Positions 1 to 24,118 of a DNA stretch of 64,000 nucleotides are shown piece by piece; the stretch's first letter is position 1, and every line of letters begins with the position of its first letter. The stretch is taken from the NCBI GenBank assembly GCA_049322915.1, contig JBMOPW010000016.1, positions 7,971 through 71,970 on the forward strand, given 5' to 3'. Source of the stretch: Candidatus Zhuqueibacterota bacterium (GTDB lineage Bacteria > Zhuqueibacterota > Zhuqueibacteria > Thermofontimicrobiales > Thermofontimicrobiaceae). Below the pieces are notes generated by a model. It was not told the DNA's origin, did not search any database, and saw only the letters and a list, made by a program, of their open reading frames with translations. Both the position numbers and the translations under genes were made by a program.

Positions 1-1
1 A

Positions 2-976
2 GCAAAAGAGTTGATCAACCAACTTGGCAGCGCAGCCAAAGAGCAGGCGACGCCGGTGTTGATCACAGCTTTAAAAACCGCAGTCAGCAAAGACGATGCT
101 CTGACCCGTGTACCAGCGCTCATGGAACTGATCAACCAGCTTGGCAGCGCGGCCAAAGAGCAGGCAGCGCCGGTGTATTCACAATTTGAAAAAACGATTT
201 CAGTACGAATTGTTGCATCTTTAAAAGCCAAAGGCTTAACCATGGTTCCTGTCAAAGGCGGTACGTTTGAAATGGGCGACACTTTTAATGAAGGAGATAG
301 TGATGAAAAGCCGGTGCACCGCGTAACGCTGTCGGATTTTTGCATCAGCCAGACCGAGGTGACCAATGCCCAGTTTGCCGCATTTCTCAATGACTATGGC
401 AAAGCTACCAACGACAATGGCAACACCCTGATCTATGAGCACGGCTGGGGCCTACGCCAAAACGGCAATCGCTGGGAGGCGCAGCCGGGCTATGGGAACT
501 ATCCGGTGGTGTATGTCACCTGGTACGGCGCGGCGCAATACGCCAAATGGGCGGGTTGTCGCTTGCCCACGGAAGCCGAGTGGGAATATGCCGCGCGCGG
601 CGGCAACCAGAGCAAAGGCTATCGCTACAGCGGCAGCAATTCTGTGTATGATGTGGCGTGGTATGATAATAATGCCAGCGGTACCCATGCGGTGGCCGCC
701 AAACAGCCGAACGAGCTGGGCTTGTACGACATGAGCGGCAATGTTTGGGAATGGTGCGCCGATTGGTATGATGAGAACTATTATGAGAAGAGTCCTGCAC
801 TAAATCCGCATGGCGCGACATCCGGCTCATATCGCGTGCTGCGGGGCGGCTCGTGGGGCGATAGTGTTAGAGTCGTCCGTTGCTCGGACCGTGACAGGAA
901 CAACCCTGACGGCAGGTACATCAACAACGGCTTTCGAGTTGCTGTCTCGTTGGCGTCACTGAAATCTGGGTTCTGA
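2..976 (+). CDS. DGR target protein: helical (HEAT-like) repeats plus C-terminal FGE-sulfatase/SUMF1 (CLec-fold) domain; 5' end lies outside the window
   Basis: Motifs [59 protein letters not shown]...GFR. Frame is open to the window edge. 39-aa repeat LINQLGSAAKEQA occurs twice. Confidence 0.93.
   Translation, partial: AKELINQLGSAAKEQATPVLITALKTAVSKDDALTRVPALMELINQLGSAAKEQAAPVYSQFEKTISVRIVASLKAKGLTMVPVKGGTFEMGDTFNEGDSDEKPVHRVTLSDFCISQTEVTNAQFAAFLNDYGKATNDNGNTLIYEHGWGLRQNGNRWEAQPGYGNYPVVYVTWYGAAQYAKWAGCRLPTEAEWEYAARGGNQSKGYRYSGSNSVYDVAWYDNNASGTHAVAAKQPNELGLYDMSGNVWEWCADWYDENYYEKSPALNPHGATSGSYRVLRGGSWGDSVRVVRCSDRDRNNPDGRYINNGFRVAVSLASLKSGF
830..958 (+). repeat. DGR variable repeat (VR)
   Basis: Gapless 129-nt match to 1512-1640; differs at 13 positions (9 A>G, 4 A>T relative to TR). 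Confidence 0.97.
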
Positions 977-1015
977 GTTTCTGTTTTCTGTTTTTAAAAA
1001 TTGGGGGGTTGGGGG

Positions 1016-1107
1016 CATAGCCGTAAGGCCAGGAGAAAAAATGATATGGAATCGTTAACAATTGTCAATGAAAACACAAGTCATAACTCCTTGGCCTGAC
1101 GGCAATG
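1016..1107. mobile_element. 92-bp MITE (IS4-like CAT ends) inserted in the DGR downstream hairpin region
   Basis: Imperfect terminal IR CATAGCCGTAAGGCCAGGAG / CTCCTTGGCCTGACGGCAATG, flanked by the direct repeat GGGTTGGGGG (1006-1015 and 1108-1117). Confidence 0.75.
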
Positions 1108-1110
1108 GGG

Positions 1111-1128
1111 TTGGGGGCTTGCCCCCAA
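1111..1128 (+). promoter_or_regulatory. GC-rich hairpin downstream of VR (candidate DGR target-recognition hairpin/cruciform)
   Basis: TTGGGGG-CTTG-CCCCCAA, 7-bp stem with 4-nt loop; overlaps a CC-A8-T8-GG palindrome (1125-1144). Confidence 0.65.
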
Positions 1129-1153
1129 AAAAAATTTTTTTTGGAGAACGAGC

Positions 1154-1507
1154 GTGCAGGAATCGCCATTGTTTATAAAAACCTATGATTTTTTAAAATG
1201 GCTGCTGGAGCATACGCAGCAATATCCCAAATCGCAACGGTTTGTGCTGGCGCAACGGGTGAATGACGCTGCGTTGAATTTTCATGAGTTGTTAATAAAA
1301 GCCACCAAATCCATGAAAAAACTTCCGGTGCTTTATGAGGCAGACTACGAGTTGGAACGGTTGCGGCTTAATTTACGACTGAGCAAGGATCTGGCGTTAT
1401 TAAAATTCAACCACTACGAACATGGGGCGCGGCAGCTCACCGAAATAGGTAAACTGCTGGGTGGCTGGATAAAAAAAATACAGGAAGGTACTGAAAAAAA
1501 GGGATAG
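1154..1507 (+). CDS. avd: DGR accessory variability determinant (four-helix bundle)
   Basis: 117 aa, basic; motifs [41 protein letters not shown]; lies between target and TR. Confidence 0.92.
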
Positions 1508-1511
1508 ACCG

Positions 1512-1640
1512 TATCGCGTGCTGCGGGGCGGCTCGTGGAACAATAATGATAGAAACGTCCGTTGCTCGAACCGTAACAGGAACAACCCTGACAACAGGAA
1601 CAACAACAACGGCTTTCGAGTTGCTGTCTCGTTGGCGTCA
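1512..1640 (+). repeat. DGR template repeat (TR)
   Basis: Adenine-rich copy of VR with 13 AAY codons in the target frame; begins 5 nt after the avd stop. Confidence 0.97.
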
Positions 1641-1800
1641 ATAATATCACTGCCAAGATATGTTATTTCTACGGAAATAACATTAGCGCCTGAATATTCT
1701 ATCGGTTTATTCCTGCGGCGCTTGTAAAAGCGACCCAAACAAAGAAAGTAACGGCAGGATGAGTAGCCAGGAGTGAAAATCCTGCTGTTACCCTATCATC
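1641..1800 (+). ncRNA. Structured DGR RNA spacer between TR and RT
   Basis: Hairpins ATGTTATTTC-TACG-GAAATAACAT (1660-1683), CGCTT-GTAA-AAGCG (1719-1732), and GTAACGGCAGGAT...ATCCTGCTGTTAC (1748-1791) enclosing AGTA/GAA. Confidence 0.65.
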
Positions 1801-1812
1801 AAGGTAAAAACA

Positions 1813-2886
1813 ATGATACAACATATCAGTTTATTTTCATCGATAATCAGTTTTGAAAATCTGGTGGCCGCTTTGCAAAAAGCCCAGGCAGGAAAAAAGC
1901 GCAAGAACAATGTCACCAGTTTTATTTATTTTCAGGAAGAAAGTTTATTCCGTCTACAACAGGAGTTAGTCGAAAAGACCTATCGGCCCGGGCCATATAC
2001 CACCTTTTATATTTATGACAAAAAGAAGCGCATGATTTCAGCCGCTCCGTTTCGGGACCGCGTCGTGCATCATGCCTTGTGCCGGGTGATTGAACCGATA
2101 TTTGAAGCCGGTTTTATTGAGGACAGTTATGCCAATCGTAAAAAAAAGGGAACACATTGGGCTGTTAATCGCTGTTCTGAATTCTCACGGGAAAATAAGT
2201 ATGTGCTAAAATTTGATATTAAAAAATACTTTCCAAGTATTGATCATGCGATTTTGAAAACACTCATCCGTCAAAAAATCAGCGATCAGGATACACTTTG
2301 GCTGATTGATTTGATCATTGATCACAGCAATACCCAGGAACCTGTTCTCGATTATTTCGGTGGAGATGATCTATTTACGCCGACAAAACGCCGCAAAGGA
2401 TTGCCGTTGGGTAATCAAACGTCACAATTTTTTGCCAATATTTATCTTGATGCTTTGGATCATTATGTAAAAGATGGACTGCAATGCAGATATTATATTC
2501 GTTATGTCGATGACGGATTAGTATTTGAAAATGACAAGAAACAACTATGGAATATCGGCAAACAAATTGGCGATTATCTTTCTACGTTACGATTACGCAT
2601 TCACCCCAATAAATATAATGTTATGCCTGTCCGGAACGGTGTCTTATTTTTAGGTTACAGAGTGTTCCCAACGCATAAATTGTTACCGAAATCCAATACC
2701 CATGGTTTTAAGCGTAAGCTGCGTTTGTTCCAAAAATTATACGCCCGTGAGATTTTACATATTTCAGACATTCGACCGTCAATCCATGGTTGGTTGGGCC
2801 ACGCGCTTCAGGCGAATACATATCGAATACGCAGGAGAATATTTTCCAGTTTTGTACTCGTTAAAAAACCGAAAATATCCTGTTAA
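1813..2886 (+). CDS. DGR reverse transcriptase
   Basis: 357 aa; RMISAAPFRDRVVHHA, KFDIKKYFPSIDH, LPLGNQTSQFFANIYL, RYVDD, FLGY; no maturase or endonuclease domain. Confidence 0.96.
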   Translation: MIQHISLFSSIISFENLVAALQKAQAGKKRKNNVTSFIYFQEESLFRLQQELVEKTYRPGPYTTFYIYDKKKRMISAAPFRDRVVHHALCRVIEPIFEAGFIEDSYANRKKKGTHWAVNRCSEFSRENKYVLKFDIKKYFPSIDHAILKTLIRQKISDQDTLWLIDLIIDHSNTQEPVLDYFGGDDLFTPTKRRKGLPLGNQTSQFFANIYLDALDHYVKDGLQCRYYIRYVDDGLVFENDKKQLWNIGKQIGDYLSTLRLRIHPNKYNVMPVRNGVLFLGYRVFPTHKLLPKSNTHGFKRKLRLFQKLYAREILHISDIRPSIHGWLGHALQANTYRIRRRIFSSFVLVKKPKISC

Positions 2887-3082
2887 AGCATATCTTATTG
2901 AGTTGTTATCTGTGCGGGAATTACCCGGAGTACTCACTTATAACAAGTGTAAGCCGGAACGTATATCAGGTTTCTGGTTGTGGGGTAACGAACAACGAAA
3001 GAATATGGGCTTTATCCCGGTGGTAAGTATCAAGCGAAAAACGCATTAACAACCTATCACTAATCAACAAAAGGAAAAACAT

Positions 3083-3610
3083 ATGGCATTATGGCATCAA
3101 ATACGACAGTGGAAGTATCCGCGTGAGTTTCGGATTGCACCTTCGCTGCTGGATCAAAACAGCGTCCGGCAGTTTCAGCAGCTTATTGATTCCTATACCA
3201 CGCAGGTTAAAACGACCATGGAACAGGCGAAACAGAAGCCGGATACAAAAATGAATACCCGTCTGTTGGCGGACATTGGCACCGGTTTGTGGCGCATCAA
3301 ACAGAAAGTGGTGCATCCGGTTTCAGGGCAGCCGCTGCCGGAAATGCGCAGCACCTATCGCCACGTGGAATCGGTCTGGGATGTATTAATCCAAACCGAC
3401 GTGGAAATCATGGATCATACGAATCAACCGTTTGATCCGGGCATGTCGCTGAAAGTAATTGCTTTTCAACAAACCGAAAACTTGCAGCGGGACATGATTA
3501 TTGAAACCATTAAACCCAGTATTTATTATAAAAAGCAGCCGATTCAAATTGGCGAGGTGATCGTTGGCACCCCGGTGACGCCGGACGAACCGAAAAAGAG
3601 CGGCAACTAA
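3083..3610 (+). CDS. Divergent GrpE-like protein (putative nucleotide-exchange factor)
   Basis: Helical N-half; C-terminal pattern QPFDP...IIETIKPSIYY...IGEVIV resembles the GrpE beta domain; lies directly upstream of the Hsp70. Confidence 0.6.
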   Translation: MALWHQIRQWKYPREFRIAPSLLDQNSVRQFQQLIDSYTTQVKTTMEQAKQKPDTKMNTRLLADIGTGLWRIKQKVVHPVSGQPLPEMRSTYRHVESVWDVLIQTDVEIMDHTNQPFDPGMSLKVIAFQQTENLQRDMIIETIKPSIYYKKQPIQIGEVIVGTPVTPDEPKKSGN

Positions 3611-3645
3611 AAATTTCAAATTACAGAACAGAGAAGGAGTGTAGC

Positions 3646-6147
3646 ATGAACCGATTAACCATTGATTTTGGTATTGACCTTGGGACAACCAATAGCAGTA
3701 TTGCCGTTATAAAAGGCACAGAAGTTGAAGTTTTCAAGAACAACGAAAATTCAGAAATCACACCGTCCGCCGTCTATATCGATAAAAAAAATAGTTTGTT
3801 TACCGGCAATGCGGCGAAATCCATGCTGGAATCGGATTTGGAGAATTCAGCTTCCGAATTCAAATTAAAAATGGGAACATCTTTCGAAAAAGTCTTTGTT
3901 CGCAGCGGTCGTCGGATGAAACCGGAGGATATGTCAGCGGAAATATTGAAAGCACTGAAATCCGATGTCCGGCAACGGACCGGCGAAGATGTACAGGCGG
4001 CGGTGATCACCGTACCGGCAGCATTTGAATTACCACAAAATGCGGCCACCAATAGATCTGCTGAAATGGCAGGCTTCAAGCTGGCGCCATTGCTGCAGGA
4101 ACCCGTAGCCGCAGCGATGGCGTATGGTTTTCAAAGCACCAGCGATAAAGTATTCTGGCTGGTATATGATTTTGGCGGCGGCACCTTCGATGCCGCCATT
4201 ATTCAGGTGCGCGATGGAGTCATTGAAGTTGTCAATCATGGCGGCGACAATCAGATGGGTGGCAAGCTGATCGATTGGTCCATTGTCGATGAATTGTTGA
4301 TCCCGGCAGTAGTCAAAGAATATAAGCTAAAAGAGTTCCATCGCGGTAATCCCAAATGGGCGGGCGCCTTTGCCAAATTAAAGAGCCATGCCGAAGAAGC
4401 GAAAAAGCGGGTTTCGCGCCAGGAGAGCTCCGGCATCACCATCGACTTCTTGTGCAATGGCGAGGATGGGCATCCCATCCAGTTTGAATATGATCTGTTA
4501 CAGAAAGATGTGGCGCGGCTGGCAGAGCCATTCTTTTTAGGTTCGATTCGAATCTGTAAAAAGGTTTTGACAGAAAAGCGTTTAGGGGTTGGCAATATCG
4601 AAAAAGTGCTGCTGGTCGGCGGGCCGACGTTAATGCCATCGCTACGCGAATTATTGAATGATCGGGAAAAAGGTTTGGGTATTCCGCTGGACTACAGCAT
4701 TGATCCACTGACTGTCGTTGCGCGCGGCGCCGCAGTGTTTGCAGGTACCAAGCGCATGGATGGCGTCTTTATTCCTTCCGTGCAAACCGGTCAATTCGCG
4801 CTCGAACTGGAATATCAACCCACGGGTTCAGAAACCGAACCTTTGGTCGGCGGCAAGGTTATCGCGTCTGAAACAGTAAAATTATCAGGTTATACCATCG
4901 AATTTGTGAATGCCGAAGCCAGACCACAATGGCGCAGTGGAAAAATCCCATTGGGTGCAGAAGGAACCTTTGTCACTAATCTCTGGGCTGAAAAAGGACG
5001 CCTGAACACATTTTGGATTGAATTATTGGATGCGAATGGTACCAAACAGGAAACGGTTCCCAATCGCCTGGAATATAAAATTGGTTTGACCATAACTGCG
5101 CCACCGCTCACACACTCGGTGGGTGTTGCTATGGCCAATAATGAAATGGAAAAATTTCTTGAAAAGGGAGCTCCCTTACCGGCACGCAAACGAAAGGTGT
5201 TTCGTACCGCAATTGATATACGCCGGGGACAAAATGAAGATTTATTGCGCATTCCGGTCGTTGAAGGAGAAAATATCCGTCGGGCGGATCGTAATCATCT
5301 GATAGGCTATTTGGAGATAAGCGGCACAAAAATTAAACGTGATGTTCCAGCCAGCAGCGAAATTGAGGTTACCATCGAAATGGATGCGTCGCGATTGATT
5401 CGCACCAAAGCCTATATCCCGATCCTGGATGAAGAATTCGAAGAAGTTATTGTGTTAGGCAAAACAGAACCCGAACCTGAAAAATTAAAGAAAGAATATG
5501 ATTCTGAAAAGAAACGTTTGGACGATGTAAAGCAGAAAGCGTCAACATCCAGCGATGACAGAGCGATGAATATAATTAATCAGGTCGAAGATGAACAGAT
5601 TCCTCATCAAATTGAAACCTCGCTGAATGCATCAACCGTTGATTCTGAAGCGGCGGATAAATGCGAAAATAAGTTGCTGGAATTGAAATCCCGGATCGAC
5701 GAAATTGAAGATATTCTTGAATGGCCAACTATTGTAAAAGAAGCGGGAGACCAATTATCACGAACGAAAGAAATTGTCGATAGCCATGGTTCCAGTGGTG
5801 ATAAATTGGAATTTAACAGCCTGGAACAGGAAATGAAATTGGCCATGCGATCCACTGCAAGGGATACCGATACCCTGCGCCGTTTGATTGATGAATTAAG
5901 CACAATGTCAATCCGTATTTTGCGCGAACAGCCAGGATTCTGGGTCGCCATACTGCAAAATCTGGAAGAGATGAAAGATAAAATGAAAAATCAATCCGAA
6001 GCGAGCCAGCTTTTTTCGCAGGGAAACCGTGCAATAAACAATAACGACATTGTAGGGCTGAAATCAGCAATTCAGCAATTATTTAAACTGCTGCCACCTG
6101 CTGAACAACAGCAAGTAAGGGGCTTTGGAAGTGGAGTAACTCTGTAG
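3646..6147 (+). CDS. Extended Hsp70-family protein (non-canonical DnaK paralogue)
   Basis: GIDLGTTNS, TPSAV, AVITVPAAF, EPVAAA, VYDFGGGTFD, LLVGGPTLMP; 833 aa with an extra domain after the NBD and a long helical tail. Confidence 0.92.
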   Translation: MNRLTIDFGIDLGTTNSSIAVIKGTEVEVFKNNENSEITPSAVYIDKKNSLFTGNAAKSMLESDLENSASEFKLKMGTSFEKVFVRSGRRMKPEDMSAEILKALKSDVRQRTGEDVQAAVITVPAAFELPQNAATNRSAEMAGFKLAPLLQEPVAAAMAYGFQSTSDKVFWLVYDFGGGTFDAAIIQVRDGVIEVVNHGGDNQMGGKLIDWSIVDELLIPAVVKEYKLKEFHRGNPKWAGAFAKLKSHAEEAKKRVSRQESSGITIDFLCNGEDGHPIQFEYDLLQKDVARLAEPFFLGSIRICKKVLTEKRLGVGNIEKVLLVGGPTLMPSLRELLNDREKGLGIPLDYSIDPLTVVARGAAVFAGTKRMDGVFIPSVQTGQFALELEYQPTGSETEPLVGGKVIASETVKLSGYTIEFVNAEARPQWRSGKIPLGAEGTFVTNLWAEKGRLNTFWIELLDANGTKQETVPNRLEYKIGLTITAPPLTHSVGVAMANNEMEKFLEKGAPLPARKRKVFRTAIDIRRGQNEDLLRIPVVEGENIRRADRNHLIGYLEISGTKIKRDVPASSEIEVTIEMDASRLIRTKAYIPILDEEFEEVIVLGKTEPEPEKLKKEYDSEKKRLDDVKQKASTSSDDRAMNIINQVEDEQIPHQIETSLNASTVDSEAADKCENKLLELKSRIDEIEDILEWPTIVKEAGDQLSRTKEIVDSHGSSGDKLEFNSLEQEMKLAMRSTARDTDTLRRLIDELSTMSIRILREQPGFWVAILQNLEEMKDKMKNQSEASQLFSQGNRAINNNDIVGLKSAIQQLFKLLPPAEQQQVRGFGSGVTL

Positions 6148-6211
6148 TTTCATGCTTAGAGCATTGAATGTAATTTAAAATATTTGCTCTTTTTATGGCG
6201 ATTCAGCGCGC

Positions 6212-6364
6212 ATGTCATTCCGGCAGAAATCCCGAGTAGTCTATTGAGTCGGATACCGGAACCTGCTAACGCTTTTTACCTTAAATTAGAATATGCAGGG
6301 CAAACACGGACTTCTTACAATCGTAGCCGTTTTGAAAAAAATCGGGACGGAACCGGAATGACAT
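6212..6364. repeat. REP-like inverted-repeat element
   Basis: ATGTCATTCCGG ... CCGGAATGACAT 12-bp inverted ends; related GTCATT/AATGAC motifs at about 12390 and 17380-17475. Confidence 0.55.
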
Positions 6365-6422
6365 TGCAGGGCTGAATGGAAACCACTCTTTAACTAAACT
6401 TTCTTAGAAGGATTATTTTTCT

Positions 6423-7409
6423 ATGAATATGAACGAACTTGTGACTTCGGAGAAATTGACAGAATCTTCAGCCACGGCCAATTACTCCAATCAAAAGATT
6501 GACCGACTCATAACATTAATGCTGCTGGAAGATGCCTGTAAATTAGCGCACACCGGCAGATATGCAGAGGCAGAGAATTTACTCTCGGAAATAAAAGGAG
6601 ATCGGTCGATCGAGCTTCAAAAATTGGATCTGCTTGCTCGAATTAAGGCCCAACAGGGACGTTTGCCCGAGGCTGAGTTACTTTGGAAAAAAGCCGAACA
6701 ACTCGATCCCGAAAATAGCGTATATCGCACTGCACTTCAGACGATTTCCAACTTTCAACAGCGGCCGTCCTGGTTACTTTGGCTTGGACCTGTCTCTGTT
6801 GTCGTTATTATCTGTCTTGTTATAATTTTCTTACTCTGGATTTTTAAATTAAGCCTACCAAAAGACAATCAGGATGTCAGTATTGCGCTTTCAAAATTAG
6901 CGTCAGAACAAGCTAAATTGGGTGCTCAGCTAAGCGATTTGAGAAAAGATGTCAAGCCAGATTCATCGACCTCTGCCATCGCGAAAATTAGCCTTTCACT
7001 CCCGGAAATTTCAACTACGAATAATGGTACCACCTTGACTATTGTTTTTCGGGAGGGGCTATTCCACCATGGGGCAACATTAACAGCTACTGCAAAAGAT
7101 ATTTTGATCCGTGTGGGAAGGCAGTTAGAGCAGTATCGTGATACTATCCAAATTGTTGTAATTGGCTTTTCCGACGATATCCCCATGCCAAACGATCAAA
7201 AATATCGTGACAATGTTACATTAGGCTGGACAAGAGCGCTATCAGTCGTTGAATGGCTGCGTCTGAATACTGCACTCACTGCAGAGAATTTTTCAACATA
7301 TAGCAAAGGCGAAGTCATGCCTCCTTTCCCTAACGACTCCTATCGCAATAAAATCAGGAATCGAACTGTTATTATAAAAGTAATGGACATTTCTACAGAA
7401 AAAAAATAG
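6423..7409 (+). CDS. TPR repeat - transmembrane helix - OmpA/MotB-like peptidoglycan-binding protein
   Basis: TPR-like LLARIKAQQGRLPEAELLWKKAEQLDPEN; hydrophobic run at about aa 117-141; C-terminal IVVIGFSDD...LGWTRALSV...NRTVII. Confidence 0.8.
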   Translation: MNMNELVTSEKLTESSATANYSNQKIDRLITLMLLEDACKLAHTGRYAEAENLLSEIKGDRSIELQKLDLLARIKAQQGRLPEAELLWKKAEQLDPENSVYRTALQTISNFQQRPSWLLWLGPVSVVVIICLVIIFLLWIFKLSLPKDNQDVSIALSKLASEQAKLGAQLSDLRKDVKPDSSTSAIAKISLSLPEISTTNNGTTLTIVFREGLFHHGATLTATAKDILIRVGRQLEQYRDTIQIVVIGFSDDIPMPNDQKYRDNVTLGWTRALSVVEWLRLNTALTAENFSTYSKGEVMPPFPNDSYRNKIRNRTVIIKVMDISTEKK

Positions 7410-7411
7410 TC

Positions 7412-7758
7412 AGGTATTGGTGTTCTCTTCCATTCGGATCGGGCTGTATAAAATGCCTGTCATGAATTTCGAGAGTTACTTTCAAAATATGACATGATCC
7501 AAAACATGAACGGCAAGGGCAATTGCTAAGATCATACCGTGTGTGAAAGTTTTTTCTTACACTTAAAGCCGATTTGGTATCGTTTGAAAAATACAAATCC
7601 AAAGAACAGGCGAAACAAAGCTTATTCGGATATATTGAAGTGTTCTATGTTCGTCATAGAAAACATACTGCCCTGAATTATAAATCACCGGTGCAGTTTG
7701 CTGAGTCAGAAAATAATGTCTAACTTAACTCTTTGTACATTTTTCTATTGCAATTTCA
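7412..7758 (+). pseudogene. IS3-family transposase 3' remnant with right end
   Basis: Translates to LFHSDRG...MNGKGNC*D...ESFFLTLK...YIEVFY...HTALNYKSP with a stop and a frameshift; ends in CA at 7758. Confidence 0.85.
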
Positions 7759-7944
7759 TTTCAAATGAGGACTTATTTAAATTTTTTTTTAATCGAATGA
7801 AATACTAGCTCGCTTACAATCTTGATACGCGTAAAGTGAAAGAGCGTGGATTCATCTTTATCAGTTTTTGCTTTTAATTCAAACTTATTTATTTCATTTC
7901 TACCGTTTTTATCTCCAAATTAACCTTACGCAGTTGAGGATGCC

Positions 7945-8352
7945 ATGAAATACTATTCAACAAACCAAAAAACCTTTTTCCTAGTGATTATTTCTATTGT
8001 CATTTTCATTATTATAACTGGCTGCAAAAAAGATTCTCCTGTTCAACCAACAAACAATACTCCATATTTCCCCGATCCATTTCAATGGTATTCTCAAACT
8101 CAATTTCAATACGACAATGTAGGCCGTATGACACAAGCAAGCACTACCATAACGATTCCTGCAGCCATCGATCCCGATGGTGATGAGCTAAGCTATACAT
8201 GGACAGCTTCAAATGGAACAATCTTAGGTAATGTCCTTACAGGAACGTGGCAACGCAGTATTATATCTGGAAGAGTTCAATCAGGGACGGTAACAGTTGT
8301 TGTTGATGATAAAAAAGGCGGAACAAATAAATGTACTCTGAATTTTCAATAG
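7945..8352 (+). CDS. Putative lipoprotein with Ig/PKD-like domain
   Basis: Lipobox ITGC; DPDGDELSYTW and VTVVVDDKKGG are typical of Ig-like/PKD domains. Confidence 0.7.
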   Translation: MKYYSTNQKTFFLVIISIVIFIIITGCKKDSPVQPTNNTPYFPDPFQWYSQTQFQYDNVGRMTQASTTITIPAAIDPDGDELSYTWTASNGTILGNVLTGTWQRSIISGRVQSGTVTVVVDDKKGGTNKCTLNFQ

Positions 8353-8396
8353 AATTTTACCAATCATTTTTTAATTGAGATTTCAAGGAGTTCCAA

Positions 8397-9971
8397 ATGA
8401 AAAAATCACATTTCTTCTTTCTTAAATTGTCTCTGATTCTCGTAATTTGTATTTTGGCAAGTAGTGAAGTAAAATCACAGGTGAATCCGGCTGCAACAGA
8501 GAAAATGGTTTTTGCACATTACATGGGCTGGTACGGCGACTCACTGGCAAGCGGAGATGACAACTTAAGACACTGGAAATGCGGTCATGCCAACCAGCCA
8601 CTCATCGGTTGTTATGATTCCCGGAATAGTTCTACGTTAACATACCACCTTTTATTGGCAGCTGCTTGTGGCATTGATGGCTTTGTGATAAATATCAAAG
8701 ATGAGTTTGACCACCAGACATTGTCTGCTTTAGTCTCTACAATCAATTCCATCAAGGCGGATAATCCGGAAACATTTCATATGCAATTTGCCCTTAGCAT
8801 TGATGATGCTGCTTTTGGTGAACATGATACCGCTGCGGTTGAGACTTCATTTACATTTATTCGCGATTCTGTAGTAACTAAAACTGATAGCTACCTCAAA
8901 GTGAACGATCGACCAGTAATTTTTCTTTTCGATTATCCGGGACATATTGAAGCATCCGAATATCGCAGCGTTGCTGATTCTGTTTTTGAGCCTGATCCGG
9001 TGTTAGTGTGGAATGAAAGTCAGGAGTTTGTTATGGGAATTGTTGATGTGTGTTATCCATGGGTGCAGCCCTTTGCAGGCATTTGGGATTCAAGTGGAAA
9101 TGAATGGGGGGGCAGGTATATCGATGATTTTTTTTGGCGCGTGAATAATATCGTCACACCTCCAAAATTGTCTTTTGCGGTTGCAGGTGTGTGGCCTGGT
9201 TTTGATGACAGAATTAATACTTGTTGGGGCTATGGTCGCTGGATGGATCGGCAAGGTGGCGCAGTGTACGATTCTACATGGCTGAAAGTCATGAATTATA
9301 ATTATGGCCTTGAAATTCCGTGGGTATACATCGAAACATGGAACGATTGGAATGAGGGGACAGAAATTGAGCCAAGCGTTGAGTATGCTTACCAATATCC
9401 TTTGGCGACGATACGAAATATAGAAAAATTCAAAAATTCATCCAGCAGTCTGGACACACTGATCACCGATACTCTTAAATTTGTAGTTGCGGAATGTATT
9501 TACGATACCTACCGGCGTATCGAAACAGGTCTATTAGATTCTACAACGTATTTTCCATGCATCAAAGAGGCAATTACGTATTATTTGCAAGCTGAGTACA
9601 CCAAGGCGGATAGTCTTTTTCGTAAGCTTGGTGTTTGCCCCGTTGGCGCTCAAGGAATCAAAGACAATGGCGCATCATCGCCAATTGAATTTGTTCTTTT
9701 CCAGAACTACCCCAATCCGTTTAATCCTTCGACCACAATTAATTTCAACGTTTCGCGCTCAAGCTACATAACACTCAAGGTATACAACCTAATCGGTGAA
9801 CAGGTTGCAGTCCTTGTTTCCAAACGTGTTAATGCCGGCTATCATCAAGTGAAATGGGACGCGAGTGGTCTCGCGAGTGGTGTATATATCTATCGTTTGG
9901 AAGTTGAAGATACGAAAGATATAGCCAGACAAAATCATGTCATGACCAAAAAACTGTTGTTGATGAAATAA
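8397..9971 (+). CDS. Secreted GH99/GH71-like glycoside hydrolase with T9SS-type C-terminal sorting domain
   Basis: Signal peptide; FAHYMGWY, GIDGF, RPVIFLF, PGFDDR, TWNDWNEGTEIEP; QNYPNPFNPSTTI...ASGVYIYRL...KKLLLMK. Confidence 0.82.
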   Translation: MKKSHFFFLKLSLILVICILASSEVKSQVNPAATEKMVFAHYMGWYGDSLASGDDNLRHWKCGHANQPLIGCYDSRNSSTLTYHLLLAAACGIDGFVINIKDEFDHQTLSALVSTINSIKADNPETFHMQFALSIDDAAFGEHDTAAVETSFTFIRDSVVTKTDSYLKVNDRPVIFLFDYPGHIEASEYRSVADSVFEPDPVLVWNESQEFVMGIVDVCYPWVQPFAGIWDSSGNEWGGRYIDDFFWRVNNIVTPPKLSFAVAGVWPGFDDRINTCWGYGRWMDRQGGAVYDSTWLKVMNYNYGLEIPWVYIETWNDWNEGTEIEPSVEYAYQYPLATIRNIEKFKNSSSSLDTLITDTLKFVVAECIYDTYRRIETGLLDSTTYFPCIKEAITYYLQAEYTKADSLFRKLGVCPVGAQGIKDNGASSPIEFVLFQNYPNPFNPSTTINFNVSRSSYITLKVYNLIGEQVAVLVSKRVNAGYHQVKWDASGLASGVYIYRLEVEDTKDIARQNHVMTKKLLLMK

Positions 9972-10239
9972 ATGTTAGATTGGTGCGTCGATTACCGCAA
10001 GGCATCCCGATAAAAAGAATCGGGAAGCTTTGCTGGTTTGGCGGGTAACTCAAGGACTGGATTCGATGCTTTTCAAAACATCCGTCGGCCAGCACAAAGC
10101 CCTTTTGTTTTTATATTTTTTAAGGAAGCGGGTAACGTGCAATCCGGCTCTGTGGTAGCAGTGACGTCTGGTTTTATCGGCAGTCATTTTTCGTAACGTG
10201 CGTCATACATAAAATGGGCACGTTGCCCTGTGTCCGTTG

Positions 10240-10373
10240 CGCTAACTAAACATCCATCGGAAAGAAGGGCTGCCAATGAAATCCGCAAAGATTGGCGCGT
10301 TGATAAAAGTGTAAATTTAAACATGATAGACGGGGCGTTGACTGCCCTTTTTTAATTGATACCGGCGTTATCC
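10240..10373 (+). other. attC-like integron recombination site
   Basis: CGCTAAC + 5-nt spacer + ATCCAT..AAAGAAGGGCTGCCAA pairs with TTGACTGCCCTTTTTT..ATTGAT + 6-nt spacer + GTTATCC; about 134 bp. Confidence 0.55.
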
Positions 10374-10438
10374 CTTTAAATTTGTCATGATGTACAGAAA
10401 ATGAAATAATCAAACTACTATAAATTTTAAAAAACTAC

Positions 10439-10467
10439 TTGATTTTCAATGTAGTATTGTATATAAT
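10439..10467 (+). promoter_or_regulatory. sigma70 promoter of the TA operon, probably giving a leaderless mRNA
   Basis: TTGATT-17nt-TATAAT; ATG lies 7 nt after the -10 box; near-palindrome GTATTGTATATAATAC over the -10 is a candidate operator. Confidence 0.7.
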
Positions 10468-10473
10468 ACCGTT

Positions 10474-10896
10474 ATGAGTAAAAAACACAGAATAGTAATC
10501 GATACAAATGTTTTTATTTCTGCCTTAAAATCCAAAAAAGGTGCGTCGTACAAACTACTTTTTGAGACCTCAAGAGAAAAATATGAGCAATGTATTTCCC
10601 CTGCTTTAATATTTGAATATGAAAGTGTGGCAAAGCGAGAAAATTTAAAGATTGATATTGAACAAATTGATGATATTATCGATATGATATGCTTACGTTC
10701 AAAGAAATGCGAGATATATTTTTTATGGCGACCATTTTTAAAAGATCCAAAAGACGATTTCATACTGGAGTTAGCGATTGAATCTAAAAGCGAATTTATA
10801 ATAACTTATAATATAAAGGATTTTGAAGGAGTCTCTCAGTTTGGAATAAATGTAATAAATCCGAAAGAATATTTACAAATAATTGGAGAAATATAA
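10474..10896 (+). CDS. PIN-domain toxin (type II TA)
   Basis: RIVIDTNVFISAL, EYE, DPKDDFILELA, IITYNIKDF. Confidence 0.9.
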   Translation: MSKKHRIVIDTNVFISALKSKKGASYKLLFETSREKYEQCISPALIFEYESVAKRENLKIDIEQIDDIIDMICLRSKKCEIYFLWRPFLKDPKDDFILELAIESKSEFIITYNIKDFEGVSQFGINVINPKEYLQIIGEI

Positions 10897-10899
10897 AAT

Positions 10900-11136
10900 A
10901 TGAGTACGCTCAGTGTAAGGCTTCCTGATTCAATACATGAAAGAGTGAAGGAATTTGCCCAAAAAGAAGGTATATCAATAAACCAATTTATAGCGAGTGC
11001 GGTCACCGAAAAAATATCTGCATTTGCAACAAAGGATTATTTAGAGAGACGAGCAAAAAGAGCAGATATTACTAAATTTAAAAAAGCACTTTCTCAAATA
11101 CCAGATGTTGAACCAGAAGAATATGATAATTTATAA
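10900..11136 (+). CDS. Ribbon-helix-helix (HicB-like/CopG) antitoxin
   Basis: STLSVRLPDSIHERVKEFAQKEGISINQFI; starts 3 nt after the PIN gene. Confidence 0.88.
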   Translation: MSTLSVRLPDSIHERVKEFAQKEGISINQFIASAVTEKISAFATKDYLERRAKRADITKFKKALSQIPDVEPEEYDNL

Positions 11137-11190
11137 TCATAAGGCTATTTTAAAATATCTACGAGTAACAGTGCTTAAATGCAAGGTATA

Positions 11191-11637
11191 ATCAGGTAAG
11201 CGGGAGTATTTCTCTCCCACTCCCTACAATCCGCCTAAAAGACTGGCGGACGAATGCGCACCGGATATTTTACGCCAGAGGCGCACTTTCAGCACCGAGT
11301 TAATCCAGAGTTCACAAATGGAAACCAAACCCTGTTCTTTGAGAGAAGTACAGCATGATATTTCCATATTTTATAAGGTAACTGTATAAAACATTAGTCA
11401 GACAGACCGCTTTGGCCCGCCAAAAAACTGGCGGACATTCCGCTGCCATAAGTTTTAACCCATCGAGAAAACATCGGTGTGCGAGATTCTTGTAAAAACG
11501 AAAAAGCATTGCTGTTGAGAATCACGCTAAGTCGCCATCAGCCTTTACTGCTCAATCCGACCGCAATGGCATAGGTTTTCACCGCACCGAGATTAATGAG
11601 GTTGCGGATTCTCGTGCGGCACTTGCGCCACTGTTTA
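11191..11637 (-). mobile_element. Group II intron 3' remnant (class C-like): maturase C-terminus, disrupted domain V, domain VI
   Basis: Minus strand ends GGGAGTGGGAGAGAAATACTCCCGCTTACCTGAT; upstream fragments KQWRKCRTRIRNLINLG...GLSSKG*WRL and EQGLVSICELW. Confidence 0.8.
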
Positions 11638-11691
11638 GTGGGTGAGATAATAGAGTGAATGGCATTTGCTAATTTTATTTTTATTACTATC

Positions 11692-11895
11692 TCACCCCAT
11701 GAATGTAACACATGCGGACTCAGCGACGAATTGAATGAGATGGTGGTAGGTGATGTGCCCGATGCCGGGAGCGGGCTGCTGTTGGATGAAGGCATTGAAT
11801 TCCAGCAACCGGCACTCCAGCGATTCGATGGAGCGATTGGAGAAGTTTGAATTTTTGCAATACTCTAAAAAATGAGTGATATGATGACGAAGCAT
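11692..11895 (-). pseudogene. Tyrosine recombinase N-terminal (SAM-like) fragment
   Basis: MLRHHITHFLEYCK..NFSNRSIESLECRLLEFNAFI..ITYHHLIQFV resembles integrase N-terminal domains; truncated by a small IR element. Confidence 0.5.
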
Positions 11896-11904
11896 AGGGA
11901 GACC

Positions 11905-13290
11905 TTCACTACCGGACACATTTTTTTTTCGATGATTTAACAAATATTCTAATGCTCTTAGTCCTAATGTAAATAAGCTGAGATCGCAACGGTCAATGCG
12001 ATGAATATTTTTCATAAAATCATTGTGAGTTGCCAACAGTCCAAAATAAATGATAAAGATATAGGCTAATGCTGCCACGATTAAAAGCTTGGCCACGCGT
12101 TCTGGCCTTGATATATGACTTTTATGAATGTTAAATCCGCGACTCTTTTTATCGGAGAACATGGTCTCGATTTTAAATCGTTTTCGATACCAATAGAGTG
12201 ATTCTCGTACAGGCTCTATATTGGTCTCGCTACCGGACACTTTTTCCAAAATAACATTTTTGATTAATTTGTCATGCCCGAATGCCATGTCCAGCTTCCA
12301 TTAAATTTATAAAGGATGACAGACTGGGCTTCTTTCGGGCATCTATTTGACAATATTTTGGGAGATTCCCGCCAAAAACATGCGGGAATGACAGCTCTAC
12401 CGAGCATAATTTGAAAAGTGTCCGGTAGTGAAATATTGGTTAGCAAATAAACTGGATCGTTATACTCTTTTCTGTGCCAAACAATAGCGTCAAATTTCGG
12501 ACTATTCGCTTGATCGAATCGAACATCAGGAATCCAAAAATACTCTTCGCGCTGCAAGGGACAAATAGTGCGAAAGGAAAAAGGATCGTCCTGTTCGATT
12601 AAAATTCGGTTTTTGCTTGTCCTAAGGACAAAAGACCACCCGTTTTGTTGAATGAGTCTGATGAGATTTGAACCATCAAATTCGCCATCACCCAAAATGA
12701 TGACGTTCGCTTTAGATGGGATAATTTCTTTTAATCGATTGACCAATTCAATGTGCACGGATTCTTTTAAATGTCCCTTTGATCCAGTGAGAACAAGCTA
12801 GCAAAGTGGCAATGCTCGATTTTTATAAACAACGCTTGCCATGAGCGTGATACAATTTCTACCAACAACACTGCCATCAATAGCAATCGCTATGGCATTG
12901 GTACATAGTAAAGACAATAAAGCTTGCACAAAAGGTAAAAAGTAACACTCAAAAGAAACATATTCGTTGGAAATCCAACGAGAAAAGGATTTTATTGTAC
13001 TGTCTGCCTGGCGATTATCAGTAACTTTGGTTGCGACCTGTGGCAGTTGGCAAGATCTTGATCCAATTGTACCAGCGATTAAATAGGAGAGCGTCGTTAG
13101 CCTGCGAGCATAATTGCCAGTGGGCTGGTTGGGACTAAGTTTTTTCAAAGAGCGAAGAATAATTTTAAATCGACGAATATTTTCGGACATCTCTTGTGCT
13201 TTCATTTATTAACCAATTAAATTTCATTAAGTTAATAAATGATACTATCTTTGTAAAGACAATTCTTTTAAAAAAGTGTCCGGTAGTGAA
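11905..13290 (-). mobile_element. IS4-like DDE insertion sequence with pseudogenised transposase
   Basis: Terminal IRs TTCACTACCGGACAC / GTGTCCGGTAGTGAA; transposase pieces IAIDGS, LGDGEFDG, YRKRFKIETMFSDKKSRGF; in-frame TAG at 12798-12800 and an internal MITE. Confidence 0.88.
12226..12432. mobile_element. 207-bp MITE sharing the IRs of the host IS, inserted in its transposase
   Basis: Ends CTCGCTACCGGACAC / GTGTCCGGTAGTGAA; 8-bp TSD ATATTGGT (12218-12225, 12433-12440); removal restores LLTNIEPVRESLYWY. Confidence 0.9.
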
Positions 13291-13300
13291 AGATAATTTT

Positions 13301-14437
13301 ATGAAAAAAAAACCGATGTATACAATTCTTTTTCTTTTTATTATTTTATTGTTATTAGCCATTGTATGTTCAAAAAACAAAGAAAAAACTGAAAAGAAGG
13401 TTGATCATTTTTTAGAAGCTAATAGAAAAATACTAATAAAAACACAGTTAAAGTATAAGCGGGAGTTTTTTGCCGTATCATTAGATTCTCTGATTTCTAT
13501 TAATCTTGAAAATTTGGAAAATGTACTTTATATCCCCCTTTTTTGCCGGTTTGATGATGATGGGAATTTGTTTTTAATGGATAGAACGACGTTTCAAATT
13601 CATAAATTTTCTACGAATAACAATTGGACTAATTACATCCATTCCGTCTTTGGAAATGGTAAGGGTGAGGGGCCTGGTGAGTTCATGAATCCTACTGATT
13701 TTAAAGTGTTTAAAAATAGGTTATTTATCACAGATCAGCAAACAGGTGCAATTGAAATTTATTCTACCGACGGTAACTATTTAAAACGAATTACAACAGA
13801 GGCGCGGGCAGATTATATACTGCCATATCAAATAGCTCCAGTTAACGAAAACCGAATAATTATCGAACGGAGGGGCTATCCCGTAGAAAATTTATTCTAT
13901 ATTTGTGATTATAATGGAAAGATTATAAAAGGATTTGGGAAATATATTGATAACTCCAACTTGAATAATGCAGTCTATCACGACAATAAAATAACAGCTT
14001 TGTTTAAAGGGAGCTATTTTTATTATTTGCCCTATTACTTGGGATTCGTAGGTTTGTACAAAGACGACAATTTATTGTTCGCTCGTCAAACCGTAGATGG
14101 ACTTCAAAAGTTAGAAGTCGTTACCAAAAAAATAAGGGATGGAGTCGTAGCCAGAAAATTAGACAGAAAGTTTGAAACAGCAGTTCGCCATGCGATTAAT
14201 GAGGATTACATTATCATCCAGGCCTATGATCGAGAAAAAAAACTATTTTTTTATGATATCTACAGTTTAATGAATTTCGATTATATTTTTAGTGTTTCAA
14301 ATTTTCCAAAAACCAATGACTTTGACACAAAAGGCAATCTCCTTGCATGCACATTATATAATAGCCTTAACATATACAATATTGAGAAAGTTAACTCCCT
14401 GATACGAGAGAAAATTGAAGAGCTGAATTCTCATTGA
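13301..14437 (+). CDS. Exported 6-bladed beta-propeller (NHL/TolB-like) protein
   Basis: Signal-like N-terminus MKKKPMYTILFLF; GNGKGEGPGEFMNP, LFITD, YSTDGNYLKRI repeats. Confidence 0.75.
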   Translation: MKKKPMYTILFLFIILLLLAIVCSKNKEKTEKKVDHFLEANRKILIKTQLKYKREFFAVSLDSLISINLENLENVLYIPLFCRFDDDGNLFLMDRTTFQIHKFSTNNNWTNYIHSVFGNGKGEGPGEFMNPTDFKVFKNRLFITDQQTGAIEIYSTDGNYLKRITTEARADYILPYQIAPVNENRIIIERRGYPVENLFYICDYNGKIIKGFGKYIDNSNLNNAVYHDNKITALFKGSYFYYLPYYLGFVGLYKDDNLLFARQTVDGLQKLEVVTKKIRDGVVARKLDRKFETAVRHAINEDYIIIQAYDREKKLFFYDIYSLMNFDYIFSVSNFPKTNDFDTKGNLLACTLYNSLNIYNIEKVNSLIREKIEELNSH

Positions 14438-14628
14438 CGAAGGAGTGATAGAAATTCGATTCATCAAATTATTCGTAAATAAAGCCGATAATTCTAATCG
14501 AAAGTAATCTGCAGAGATGTGAAATTAATAGTATCCCTTCGGTGAACCCCATATTTGAAAATAGAATAAAATAAGGTATATTGAGCCCGATACGTTACGT
14601 AAATTATTCATGAAACGACGGGCGAAAT

Positions 14629-14967
14629 ATGCCAGATCAAAAATTAGTGCTGCATCGCCAGGCGCGGATGGCGGTCATTGAAAAATACCTGGCCAGCGGA
14701 CAAGTGCAAAAAGAGTTCTGCCAGAACGAACAGATCAGTTATGCGACCTTTCACTACTGGTTGAAAAAGTATCGTCAGGGGCAGACTTCATCCGCCTCGG
14801 GCGAGCCATTGCCAAACTGCTCTGTGCCGATTACGTTTTCATCGGCGGCTGTATCCCATCCAGCGCCTTGCTACACGATTGAATATCCCGGCGGCGTTGT
14901 TTTGCACATCAGCGCGCCCCTGGACCCGCACGCGCTGATTCAACTCATTCGGGCGCAGGACGTTTGA
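14629..14967 (+). CDS. tnpA: IS66 accessory protein TnpA
   Basis: ASGQVQKEFCQNEQISYATFHYWLKKY HTH; IEYPGGVVL. Confidence 0.8.
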   Translation: MPDQKLVLHRQARMAVIEKYLASGQVQKEFCQNEQISYATFHYWLKKYRQGQTSSASGEPLPNCSVPITFSSAAVSHPAPCYTIEYPGGVVLHISAPLDPHALIQLIRAQDV

Positions 14968-14968
14968 T

Positions 14969-15312
14969 ATGCTGCCGATGTTCCACTGACTCCGTTTTTT
15001 TCTGTGCACCTAACCGACCGACATGCGTCATCCCGCAAAGCGGGAAACGGATTGAGCGGCATCATCAGCAACGCCCGGATCAGTCGGCCCGACAATGGTG
15101 ATGCCTATATCTTCATCAACCGTCGGCGCGACCGCATGAAGCTGCTTGTCTGGGATCGCACTGGATTCTGGCTTTTGTACAAACGCCTGGAAAAAGGCAC
15201 GTTCCAAATTCCGCCGAACCCGGCGAATCAGCCAGCGGTTGAACTATCGTATTGGGCCCATGCGCGGCGCTATTTTACAGACGGCCAGGCAGTGGCTGCT
15301 GGCAAAGCTTGA
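14969..15312 (+). pseudogene. tnpB: IS66 TnpB (degraded), fused by deletion to a TnpC fragment
   Basis: AYIFINRRRDRMKLLVWDRTGFWLLYKRLEKGTF, then WAHARRYF. Confidence 0.8.
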
Positions 15313-15702
15313 AAAGTTATACTTACTTGAAGATCCGGCGCGGACGGAACAGCGCGAACACGATGCTCGTTATCACTTCAGGCAAACGTACGCCCTGACG
15401 TAATGGCCGTAAGAACTATTTGTTCGCTGGTTCGCACGACGGCGTTATTTACTCCCTGGTTGCCACTGCGAAAAAGCACGGTGTGGAGCCGTTTGCCTGG
15501 CTCAACGATGCGCTCGCCCGAATCGCCCATTGTCCAGTCACCTAATCTATTTAAGTTAACAATACTGGGGATCATCCGTTCAGGCAGCTCCACCAACTCC
15601 TGCCGCCCAATTGGACGCCGTCTAACTAAATCTGATCTTTCAAAGAACTGCTCGGTTTTTTATTGGTGTACTTGACCGAAGGGATACGCCTGTCCACTTG
15701 CT

Positions 15703-17067: not shown

Positions 17068-17273
17068 TTTTTTCCTCTACGCTATTATATGTTTAGGCCT
17101 CGAAGGCGCCAAGACTCAAAAGAGTTTCTATGTAAATCTATAGACTGTTTGACTGGAAAATTCCAAAAATCAAAAAACAAAATACAAATAAAACACAACA
17201 ACAAAATCCTAAAAATCAAACTACTCAGGTTCCAGGTTTAAAGGTTCCCGGTTCCGAGTTAAAGAGAATTTTC

Positions 17274-17981: not shown

Positions 17982-18205
17982 TACAAAAAAGTATCGAATT
18001 TATTGCACTTGCTTTTAACCCTACCACGTCACATAGATTTTTTATCGTTGTATTTTTGATAGATGAAAAACTCAACATATTGTGATAAATTTAGTAAATG
18101 ACGTTGTAGGGTTAACTGGTCATTCAAATTAAGAATATAAGGTGAAAACCCAGTTTCATTTTTTTCTCGGAGCCTTCGAAACCAGGAGGCGAAAAAGTTG
18201 TTGCA

Positions 18206-20236: not shown

Positions 20237-20407
20237 GGCGGTTGTCTTTTGAATGGCTAATTACTACTTCGTCGGATTCAGATAAAAATGGAGCGCGATG
20301 TCTGCATCGCGATGCGCATTCCATAAAGGGAATGTACTCCACATAGCTTTGTATTCATGATTGTTAAATGCACCCACGTTGACTGCGTTATTCGAATCGA
20401 TACGAAA

Positions 20408-22340: not shown

Positions 22341-22539
22341 GTTTAAACCTCTCCTCCAAAAAATATGCAGGAAAAGGTGCCCATTTTCGGTTTGAACGCC
22401 ACCAGAAGATAAACAATCTGATGTAAAGAATCAAGCTCAAAAACATGGCACCTTCTCCTTCCTTCCATAGATAAGGGATTATACGGATAGGGCATACTTT
22501 TCGTAATCCCATTATGGGATATTAATTTCTATCGGTCCT

Positions 22540-24027: not shown

Positions 24028-24118
24028 GTTGGACTCCTTTGCTTAAATGAAATGTTGATCGAATGGCGGGTACGATGTTGAATGGCATACCCTGGGTGAA
24101 GATCTTCGCTCGAATAAA

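Follow-up and report, generated by a model that had tools for sequence, protein, structure and literature searches.

A chromosomal diversity-generating retroelement with a predicted membrane protein of an Hsp70/kinase gene cassette as its target in Candidatus Zhuqueibacterota

Introduction

Among the described diversity-generating retroelements (DGRs), that of Bordetella phage BPP-1 (mtd-avd-TR-brt, TR being the template repeat) is a close counterpart of the element analyzed here, which lies at the beginning of a 64,000-nucleotide stretch of a Candidatus Zhuqueibacterota genome (assembly GCA_049322915.1, contig JBMOPW010000016.1, positions 7,971 to 71,970 of the forward strand; hereafter the window). 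Both share the gene order, adenine-specific differences between the TR and the variable repeat (VR), a C-terminal VR on a lectin fold and a constant 3' segment. Unlike the phage element, the DGR in the window is chromosomal, lacks a GC-rich inverted repeat by the VR, and appears to target a cellular membrane protein rather than a tail fibre. The Bordetella spacer RNA is an established recognition element, and forms the basis of the analogy drawn below for stem-loops found 3' of the TR. A second relative is the Treponema denticola variable protein TvpA (2y3c), a lipoprotein with the same FGE-sulfatase-type lectin fold and a C-terminal VR. In contrast to TvpA, the lectin domain in the window would serve as ectodomain to a long protein of several domains, among them a cytoplasmic module.

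Kaur et al. 2020 (PMC7159879) and Dore et al. 2024 (PMC10907252) reported DGRs that act on the lectin domains of multidomain conflict or signaling proteins. These two papers describe genomes with several DGR loci, of which some are incomplete, have been degraded by transposons or miniature inverted-repeat transposable elements (MITEs) and are possibly served in trans, as well as targets predicted to be periplasmic and 'antigen sensors' of multicellular bacteria. The present element resembles these systems in its chromosomal location and in that the diversified domain, of lectin/FGS type, forms the C-terminus of a multidomain protein, and the NACHT-lectin targets on two further contigs of the genome, C14 and C18 (NACHT/nSTAND with FGE-sulfatase), fit their STAND class. 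It differs in that the cluster genes of the window encode no STAND NTPase, MoxR, vWA or GTPase, the partners being a Ser/Thr kinase, a GrpE-fold protein and an Hsp70 paralogue; where the relevant passages of Kaur et al. 2020 (PMC7159879) mention HSP70 and GrpE, they do so only in GTPase-centred systems. Vallota-Eastman et al. 2020 (PMC7517822) appears to describe cyanobacterial DGRs diversifying regulatory or kinase proteins. The clade of the reverse transcriptase (RT) and the proposed tuning of signaling proteins are common to those elements and to the present one, whereas in the window the kinase has its own gene in the conserved cassette and diversification would act on a non-kinase protein. 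Searches of a limited literature collection that paired DGR or gene-neighbourhood terms with Hsp70, DnaK or GrpE yielded neither a link between a DGR and such a cassette nor a description of the cassette.

An avd-TR-RT element with adenine-specific repeat divergence

The genome (G000) is a metagenome-assembled draft of 45 contigs, and the window begins on contig C16 directly after a 100-N scaffold gap (C16:7871-7970). Aligned without gaps over 129 nt, TR and VR differ at 13 positions, all of them TR adenines (nine A to G, four A to T, none A to C; hypergeometric p = 6.3e-9 for 13 of 13 differences hitting the 35 adenines). Seven differences lie at the first and six at the second codon position, none at the third, and together they alter ten residues between RGGSW and GFR. 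The homology closes with 37 identical bases and breaks off sharply at 958/1640, six codons before the stop of the ORF (open reading frame) 2-976. This pattern shows past adenine mutagenesis of the VR. An initial annotation of the window, made from its letters and reading frames, had reported the same gapless alignment and about 15^13 possible protein variants; realignment reproduced the former, and the latter is arithmetically right for the 13 Asn (AAY) codons counted in the TR. The whole-genome search for remote VRs that it had proposed was run with blastn against all 45 contigs and returned the local VR only, other matches having mismatches at all four bases. The separate search of the genome for TR/VR pairs covered nine regions around FGE-sulfatase and RT matches.

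The machinery is likewise as first annotated. The avd gene is uninterrupted and its product exceeds the curated cut-offs of NCBIfam NF033474 (108.6 bits, cut-off 80) and Pfam bAvd (83.7 bits, cut-off 40), with a weak structural match to 4dwl Bbp7 (E 0.0088). The RT gene is also uninterrupted and carries the LGNQTSQ and YVDD motifs. Among solved structures the closest is the 328-aa RT of 8ub7 (E 1.5e-57), which we take to be the Bordetella DGR RT (bRT). The window RT has the TSQ.FAN.Y stretch and YxDD in common with it; matches to the group II intron GsI-IIC (3.2e-18) and to chains named retron-type RT (9.5e-14) are far weaker. We compared the 80 nearest RT loci of species-representative genomes, many of them cyanobacterial, with 46-57% identity to the window RT: an Avd gene lies beside the RT in 73 and an FGE-sulfatase gene in 66, and an A-biased TR/VR pair (at least 80% of differences at A) is detectable in 58. 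Wu et al. 2018 (PMC5758913) class a layout of target, avd, TR and RT as architecture B1, and the concept of an initiation of mutagenic homing (IMH) region for the constant 3' segment is taken from the same paper. Judged by these features, the element is almost certainly a genuine, canonical, chromosomal DGR of the avd-TR-RT type, in agreement with the identity first proposed for it.

A quick tree of Avd-linked RTs, the phylogenetic check suggested earlier, places the window RT among them, nearest to KSB1/Spirochaetales rows with weak support; its outgroups, five long RTs, are unclassified (93-110 bits on the group II model, cut-off 300), so the tree speaks to the placement among Avd-linked RTs and not to membership of the group II or retron RTs. 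Within the phylum, an RT of this kind (E <= 1e-40) is encoded in 48 of 167 genomes, or 46 of 165 when the unpublished G158 and G162 are set aside, and the best RT of the same-genus genome is only 46% identical to that of the window.

Table 1 Features of the DGR, its target and the adjoining cassette. Positions are those of the window unless prefixed with C16.
Feature	Position	Strand	Basis and remarks
DGR target, 3' part: HEAT-like repeats and FGE-sulfatase/C-type-lectin-fold domain	2..976	+	Pfam, PDB
Target, 5' continuation outside the window	C16:6641-7870, plus C16:5603-6637 before the in-frame TAG	+	Same reading frame
Variable repeat (VR)	830..958	+	Last 43 codons of the lectin-fold domain; 129 nt ungapped against the TR
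Invariant 3' VR segment, candidate IMH region	922..958	+	Identical to TR 1604-1640
GC hairpin TTGGGGGC/GCCCCCAA, then A8/T8 palindrome, between target and avd	1111..1144	.	Inverted-repeat search; uncalled by the terminator scan
avd (accessory variability determinant), 117 aa	1154..1507	+	NCBIfam DivGenRetAVD NF033474 and Pfam bAvd
Template repeat (TR)	1512..1640	+	35 A among 129 bases; 13 AAY codons
RNA hairpin 1	1660..1683	+	10-bp stem, 4-nt loop, 100% complementary, 20 nt 3' of the TR
RNA element 2	1748..1791	+	13-bp stem around invariant GUA...GAA, 107 nt 3' of the TR
DGR reverse transcriptase, 357 aa	1813..2886	+	PDB, Avd linkage of relatives, TR/VR pairs
GrpE-fold protein, 175 aa	3083..3610	+	AlphaFold2 model (pLDDT, predicted local distance difference test, 89.1); Foldseek
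Hsp70 paralogue, 833 aa	3646..6147	+	DnaK-like nucleotide-binding domain 8-368 and family-specific C-terminal half
TPR and OmpA/MotB-like peptidoglycan-binding protein, last cassette gene	6423..7409	+	Pfam OmpA 31.8 bits, TPR matches

Conserved stem-loops downstream of the template repeat

Two stem-loops are conserved downstream of the TR in all seven DGRs of avd-TR-RT order that were compared (the window, L005, L006, L014, L041, L064 and L075). For hairpin 1, nine pairs are predicted across the seven and six of them show compensatory changes. For element 2, 90.5% of cells are paired versus 69.9 +/- 3.1 in shuffles (0 of 500 reach the observed value) and 36-49% in slid controls, and 13 of its 15 pairs are altered on both sides. 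When 1.1 Mb of DGR loci were scanned with a covariance model of element 2, ten further matches scored E <= 0.1. Each of them is on the same strand as the RT; seven sit 97-125 nt 3' of a detected TR, some at loci in which the TR follows the RT. Covariation of this extent establishes, at the level of sequence, a conserved RNA structure 3' of the TR, and by analogy with the Bordetella spacer the stem-loops are probably what the RT-Avd complex recognizes. An Rfam scan of window positions 1-8000 assigned no family (one chance match to a long non-coding RNA was sub-threshold), and in a promoter and terminator scan of positions 900-3200 counts did not exceed shuffled expectation. The hairpin and palindrome between target and avd could possibly act as a bidirectional terminator.

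The target is a multidomain protein with a predicted periplasmic lectin tip

The 5' part of the target gene, whose recovery had been recommended, was traced through the scaffold gap to C16:5603. Since the flanks of the gap (C16:7744-7870 and window 1-127) are identical over 127 nt and joining them preserves the frame, the gap is most likely spurious, an unmerged k-mer overlap of the assembler, and extra repeat copies may be present. Upstream of the gap the frame contains a TAG at C16:6638-6640, preceded by a 345-codon ORF (C16:5603-6637) and followed by about 692 open codons, so that the full target would comprise about 1,038 codons. The DGR, termed complete in the initial annotation, is complete in its machinery; as assembled, its target gene is divided by an in-frame TAG upstream of the window.

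The recovered protein comprises, in order, an all-helical N-terminal domain (AlphaFold2 pLDDT 93.8), a zinc-ribbon middle domain, one predicted transmembrane helix, HEAT-like repeats and the FGE-sulfatase/C-type-lectin domain. The sole strong hydrophobic 19-mer outside the N-terminal domain comes after RKQQRVRRLR, and because of the positive-inside rule the HEAT-like repeats and the lectin domain would lie outside the cytoplasm; the variable tip of the lectin domain thus probably faces the periplasm. Pfam FGE-sulfatase covers residues 80-314 of the 324-residue ORF fragment (E 1.5e-64), with the VR at the C-terminal end of the domain, and the structural matches are FGE and TvpA (E 1.5e-25), as expected from the scaffold named in the initial annotation. 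Its observation that the catalytic CxxxxC is missing also holds, the stretch being gapped in the alignment to Streptomyces FGE (6muj/2q17); the target scores far under every cut-off of the NCBIfam models for FGE-fold enzymes, and by sequence the lectin-fold domain is non-catalytic. The label 'HEAT-like' fared less evenly: residues 1-70 of ORF 2-976 give sub-threshold Pfam matches, while HEAT families are precomputed for the homologue P0152.

The N-terminal domain defines a large family of at least 1,752 clusters (50% identity, E <= 0.001), surveyed through its best 150 representatives, 40 of them domain-scanned, and separately through 81 long homologues. A homologue of the sequence past the TAG follows the N-terminal domain directly, within one protein, in 99 of the best 150 representatives. 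An FGE-sulfatase domain was found in none of these 150, and HEAT repeats close 16 of the 40 scanned. P0152 (1,016 aa, 52% identical) is an intact fusion and the one long homologue in 81 with the complete arrangement, in the order family domain, zinc-ribbon middle domain, HEAT, hydrophobic helix, HEAT and FGE-sulfatase. Two of the 81 are fused to the Hsp70 paralogue of the cassette described below, and one carries DnaJ_C. Other members carry a phosphopantetheine-binding domain (P0153, P0154, P0020, P0006) or a response-regulator receiver (P0188, P0190, P0192), and these accessory domains suggest a modular family with exchangeable ends.

A conserved kinase, GrpE-fold, Hsp70 and TPR/OmpA cassette

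On one strand, C16 encodes an FHA-wHTH regulator, a Ser/Thr kinase, the target, avd-TR-RT, the GrpE-fold protein, the Hsp70 paralogue and the TPR/OmpA protein. For the GrpE-fold protein Pfam GrpE gives only 17.5 bits, under its cut-off; searched with Foldseek against the PDB, its model gives ten matches at E <= 0.001, all of them GrpE (6.6e-7 to 9.4e-4), and the first unrelated match at 0.067. The model confirms the GrpE fold, and nucleotide exchange is a putative role. The Hsp70 paralogue matches Pfam HSP70 at E 3.5e-80, with ATPase motifs conserved in 14 homologues. Compared with DnaK-DnaJ-GrpE, the cassette shares the DnaK-like nucleotide-binding domain with these motifs and the GrpE fold. 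It differs in that structural matches to DnaK cover only residues 8-377 of the Hsp70 paralogue, its C-terminal 465 residues having no match to the DnaK substrate-binding domain by sequence, and in that no J domain was found (Pfam, HPD). All scores on the NCBIfam DnaK and GrpE models lie far under their cut-offs.

The arrangement recurs elsewhere. G044, of the same class, encodes next to each other the kinase (64% identity), a family protein, GrpE-like (46%), Hsp70-like (57%) and TPR/OmpA (34%) proteins, and has no DGR there. Among 17 metagenome loci with the family domain (two locus pairs give identical figures and may be duplicates), GrpE-like and Hsp70-like genes are present in 15, the contigs of the other two ending first; the kinase is found in 14, TPR/OmpA after the Hsp70 paralogue in 11, and Avd or RT in none. 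The distribution of the cassette in the phylum is patchy: with one query, the family domain was detected in three of 167 genomes and not in the same-genus genome (94% complete). These gene orders place the target in a conserved cassette of kinase, family protein, GrpE-fold, Hsp70 and TPR/OmpA genes. Since the cassette is found elsewhere without a DGR, the lectin domain and avd-TR-RT appear to have been grafted between the family gene and the GrpE-fold gene. One of the DGR-less metagenome cassettes has an FGE-sulfatase-like gene (L094 12002-12535) about 1.7 kb downstream of TPR/OmpA, with no Avd or RT detected.

PADLOC matched no defence model to the three core cassette proteins, and assignment to CoCoNuT type III (Hsp70-like plus HEAT) was rejected, neither McrB nor McrC being encoded here. 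The first 480 nt or so of C16 (C16:1-480, L004) consist of a tandem repeat whose 21-nt unit encodes a heptad peptide and in which several reading frames stay open on either strand. An ISL3 transposase fragment is found at L004 2777-3229, and PIN and DDE transposase fragments at window 10474-12758; the cassette thus sits in a stretch rich in mobile elements.

Proposed mode of action and its weak points

In our preferred interpretation, to which we assign a probability of roughly 85%, the element is a chromosomal avd-TR-RT DGR, with a predicted membrane protein of the Hsp70/kinase cassette as its target. Following the known DGR mechanism, the TR and its 3' structured RNA would be transcribed, and the RT-Avd complex would copy the TR RNA into cDNA while misreading adenines. 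This cDNA would take the place of the VR as far as the constant 3' segment, so that as many as 13 Asn codons, along with other codons containing A, could be rewritten on the C-terminal face of the lectin domain. The variable tip could bind changing periplasmic or surface ligands, and the signal could pass to the cytoplasmic family domain, the Hsp70/GrpE cycle and the kinase/FHA-wHTH pair. That the target is a receptor with a hypervariable ectodomain reporting to the Hsp70/kinase module, in sensing or conflict, is offered tentatively; the 'cellular sensor or adaptor' of the initial annotation fits the recovered architecture, its function being one that we infer. More doubtful still is the wider proposal that the cassette is a receptor-to-chaperone signaling or conflict device with its own GrpE and Hsp70 paralogue and an OmpA anchor, whose exchangeable module was swapped in this lineage for a hypervariable periplasmic DGR lectin, giving a membrane 'antigen receptor' acting via the Hsp70 cycle, with the genome's single RT-Avd pair perhaps serving the TR of C14 in trans via the GUA...GAA stem-loop.

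As machinery the element is textbook, one more member of a well-surveyed clade. Its interest lies in the context of the target, in which targeted hypermutation is tied to an Hsp70/GrpE/kinase cassette common in metagenomes. A DGR marks a domain that binds changing ligands, which suggests that the exchangeable C-terminal module of the family is its ligand-recognition end and the cassette a sensing device; the presence of the DGR thereby gives a handle on an unstudied family. Conserved stem-loops, together with an RT-less TR that keeps one, make service in trans by one RT-Avd testable.

Several observations weigh against this interpretation. The target as assembled may be a pseudogene or a split gene, the in-frame TAG standing where the G044 and P0152 homologues have Gln, one C>T step from CAG. 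The combination of DGR and family is rare (0 of 80 RT loci, 0 of 17 cassette loci, 1 of 81 long family proteins), the sensor role is a prediction, and the N-terminal domain is tied to Hsp70 by gene order and fusions. Foldseek against the PDB found nothing for the N-terminal domain at E <= 0.001, and VIA-align gave at best a generic three-helix bundle (Z 8.8); these fold searches were dominated by the C-terminal helices and barely probed the first 100 residues. In the family, no Pfam DnaJ match at E <= 0.05 and no HPD in the 61-sequence consensus point to a J domain, a J-like pattern having been read by eye only. The repeat search found no GC-rich inverted repeat within about 150 nt of the VR, and the hairpin downstream of the target was not counted as IMH-proximal because it lies about 150 nt away; according to Wu et al. 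2018 (PMC5758913), such a repeat is present at just 34% of DGRs. Finally, the read-side data, assembled contigs from three runs of one study, contain no VR variant: one contig of the probable source run spans window 98-951 with zero differences, and contigs break where TR = VR. This last point counts for little because contigs drop minor variants; the contig data show the dominant VR allele, not an absence of variation.

Alternative explanations

The alternative that survives best, although we consider it unlikely, is a DGR in decay, its target knocked out by a nonsense mutation and its VR frozen while the machinery still looks intact, and the locus heading for the degraded condition of other loci in the genome. 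The TAG at a Gln position and the invariant contigs would both fit, as would the state of the other DGR-like loci described below, where C14 keeps a TR and VRs with neither RT nor Avd, one of its VR-bearing genes is likewise interrupted by an in-frame TAG (Trp in homologues), and on C18 a NACHT-lectin gene precedes an Avd fragment that MITE-like repeats have cut. Avd and RT are, however, full-length and conserved, the TR, the constant 3' segment and both RNA elements are intact, and the roughly 692 codons past the TAG are open and conserved, which implies that the mutation is recent, tolerated or not fixed. Reading through the TAG by recoding was rejected: TAG is an ordinary and common stop in this genome, ending 369 of 1,922 long ORFs and four cluster genes, none of 47 tRNAs has the anticodon CUA, and the residues that the two in-frame TAGs stand for are not the same (Gln in one gene, Trp in the other).

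With still lower probability, the TAG may not be the state of the population: it could stem from an error in the consensus or the assembly, or represent a minority allele, and the target would then be one intact ORF of about 1,038 codons. The stop requires a single C>T change from CAG in a frame that is otherwise open, and a k-mer-overlap pseudo-gap of the draft metagenome assembly lies 1.2 kb away; a mean contig depth of 64-71 near the locus makes a plain base-calling error unlikely. A functional split, in which the N-terminal domain and a membrane receptor translated from an internal start cooperate as two proteins, is improbable. Its downstream frame is intact and in-frame TTG and ATG codons lie 16-25 codons past the stop, yet no start codon or ribosome-binding site follows the stop directly, and the domain lies inside a longer protein in 81 of 81 long homologues and, apart from a few sequences of about 300-350 aa, throughout the best 150 representatives.

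It is very improbable that the DGR belongs to a prophage and acts on a tail fibre or receptor-binding protein. Related RTs do occur in 168 phage records, five of them Bordetella phages, but the best phage RT is 41.6% identical as against up to 58% for cellular genomes, and the target is a predicted membrane-anchored member of a cellular cassette. Pfam scans found no phage genes (structural, integrase or lysis) among the six further genes in 1-7409, the twelve genes in 7945-25605 or the upstream neighbours scanned, in line with the chromosomal setting originally described. That the element is a group II intron, retron or defence RT lying beside a repeat by chance is scarcely credible: the top NCBIfam model for the RT is indeed a group II RT/maturase (146.6 bits) and PADLOC RT models also match, but this score is far under the cut-off of 300, maturase and retron features were not found, and the curated Avd, the adenine-only TR/VR differences and the Avd, TR and VR of most relatives all speak for a DGR.

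Other DGR-like loci in the genome

Besides the element in the window, the genome contains further DGR-like sequences. On C14 (C14:576682-579544; L001 8683-11545) a second TR of 133 nt with 34 A (C14:577126-577258) lies between two NACHT/nSTAND-FGE-sulfatase genes, each with a C-terminal VR that differs from this TR at 15 positions, all adenines, and from the other VR at 16. No RT or Avd was found on C14, and an IS200-type transposase gene comes next. The second of the two targets has its in-frame TAG at L001 10982-10984, inside the FGE-sulfatase domain, so that two of the three VR-bearing genes found in the genome contain a premature TAG. The best covariance-model match in the 20-kb C14 locus lies 73 nt 3' of the TR (18.7 bits; E 0.011, roughly calibrated), and because of this match the C14 TR may be served in trans by the RT-Avd of the window; the TR flanks of C16 and C14 show no blastn similarity and are linked by the covariance model alone.

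On the minus strand of C18 (L003 6900-10852), a gene for a 1,050-aa NACHT-FGE-sulfatase protein precedes an Avd gene reduced to its first 36 codons, which three copies of a MITE-like repeat cut off from the rest. No TR was found there, and by its remaining genes the locus is a degraded DGR. A different setting is seen on C34 (L002 2986-16353), a type III CRISPR-Cas neighbourhood with Cas1, Cas6, RAMP and a Card1-like CARF nuclease, which also contains a TIR-FGE-sulfatase gene and a gene for a 982-aa protein that unites RT, TPR, a TOTE-type archaeo-eukaryotic primase and a Gam-like domain.

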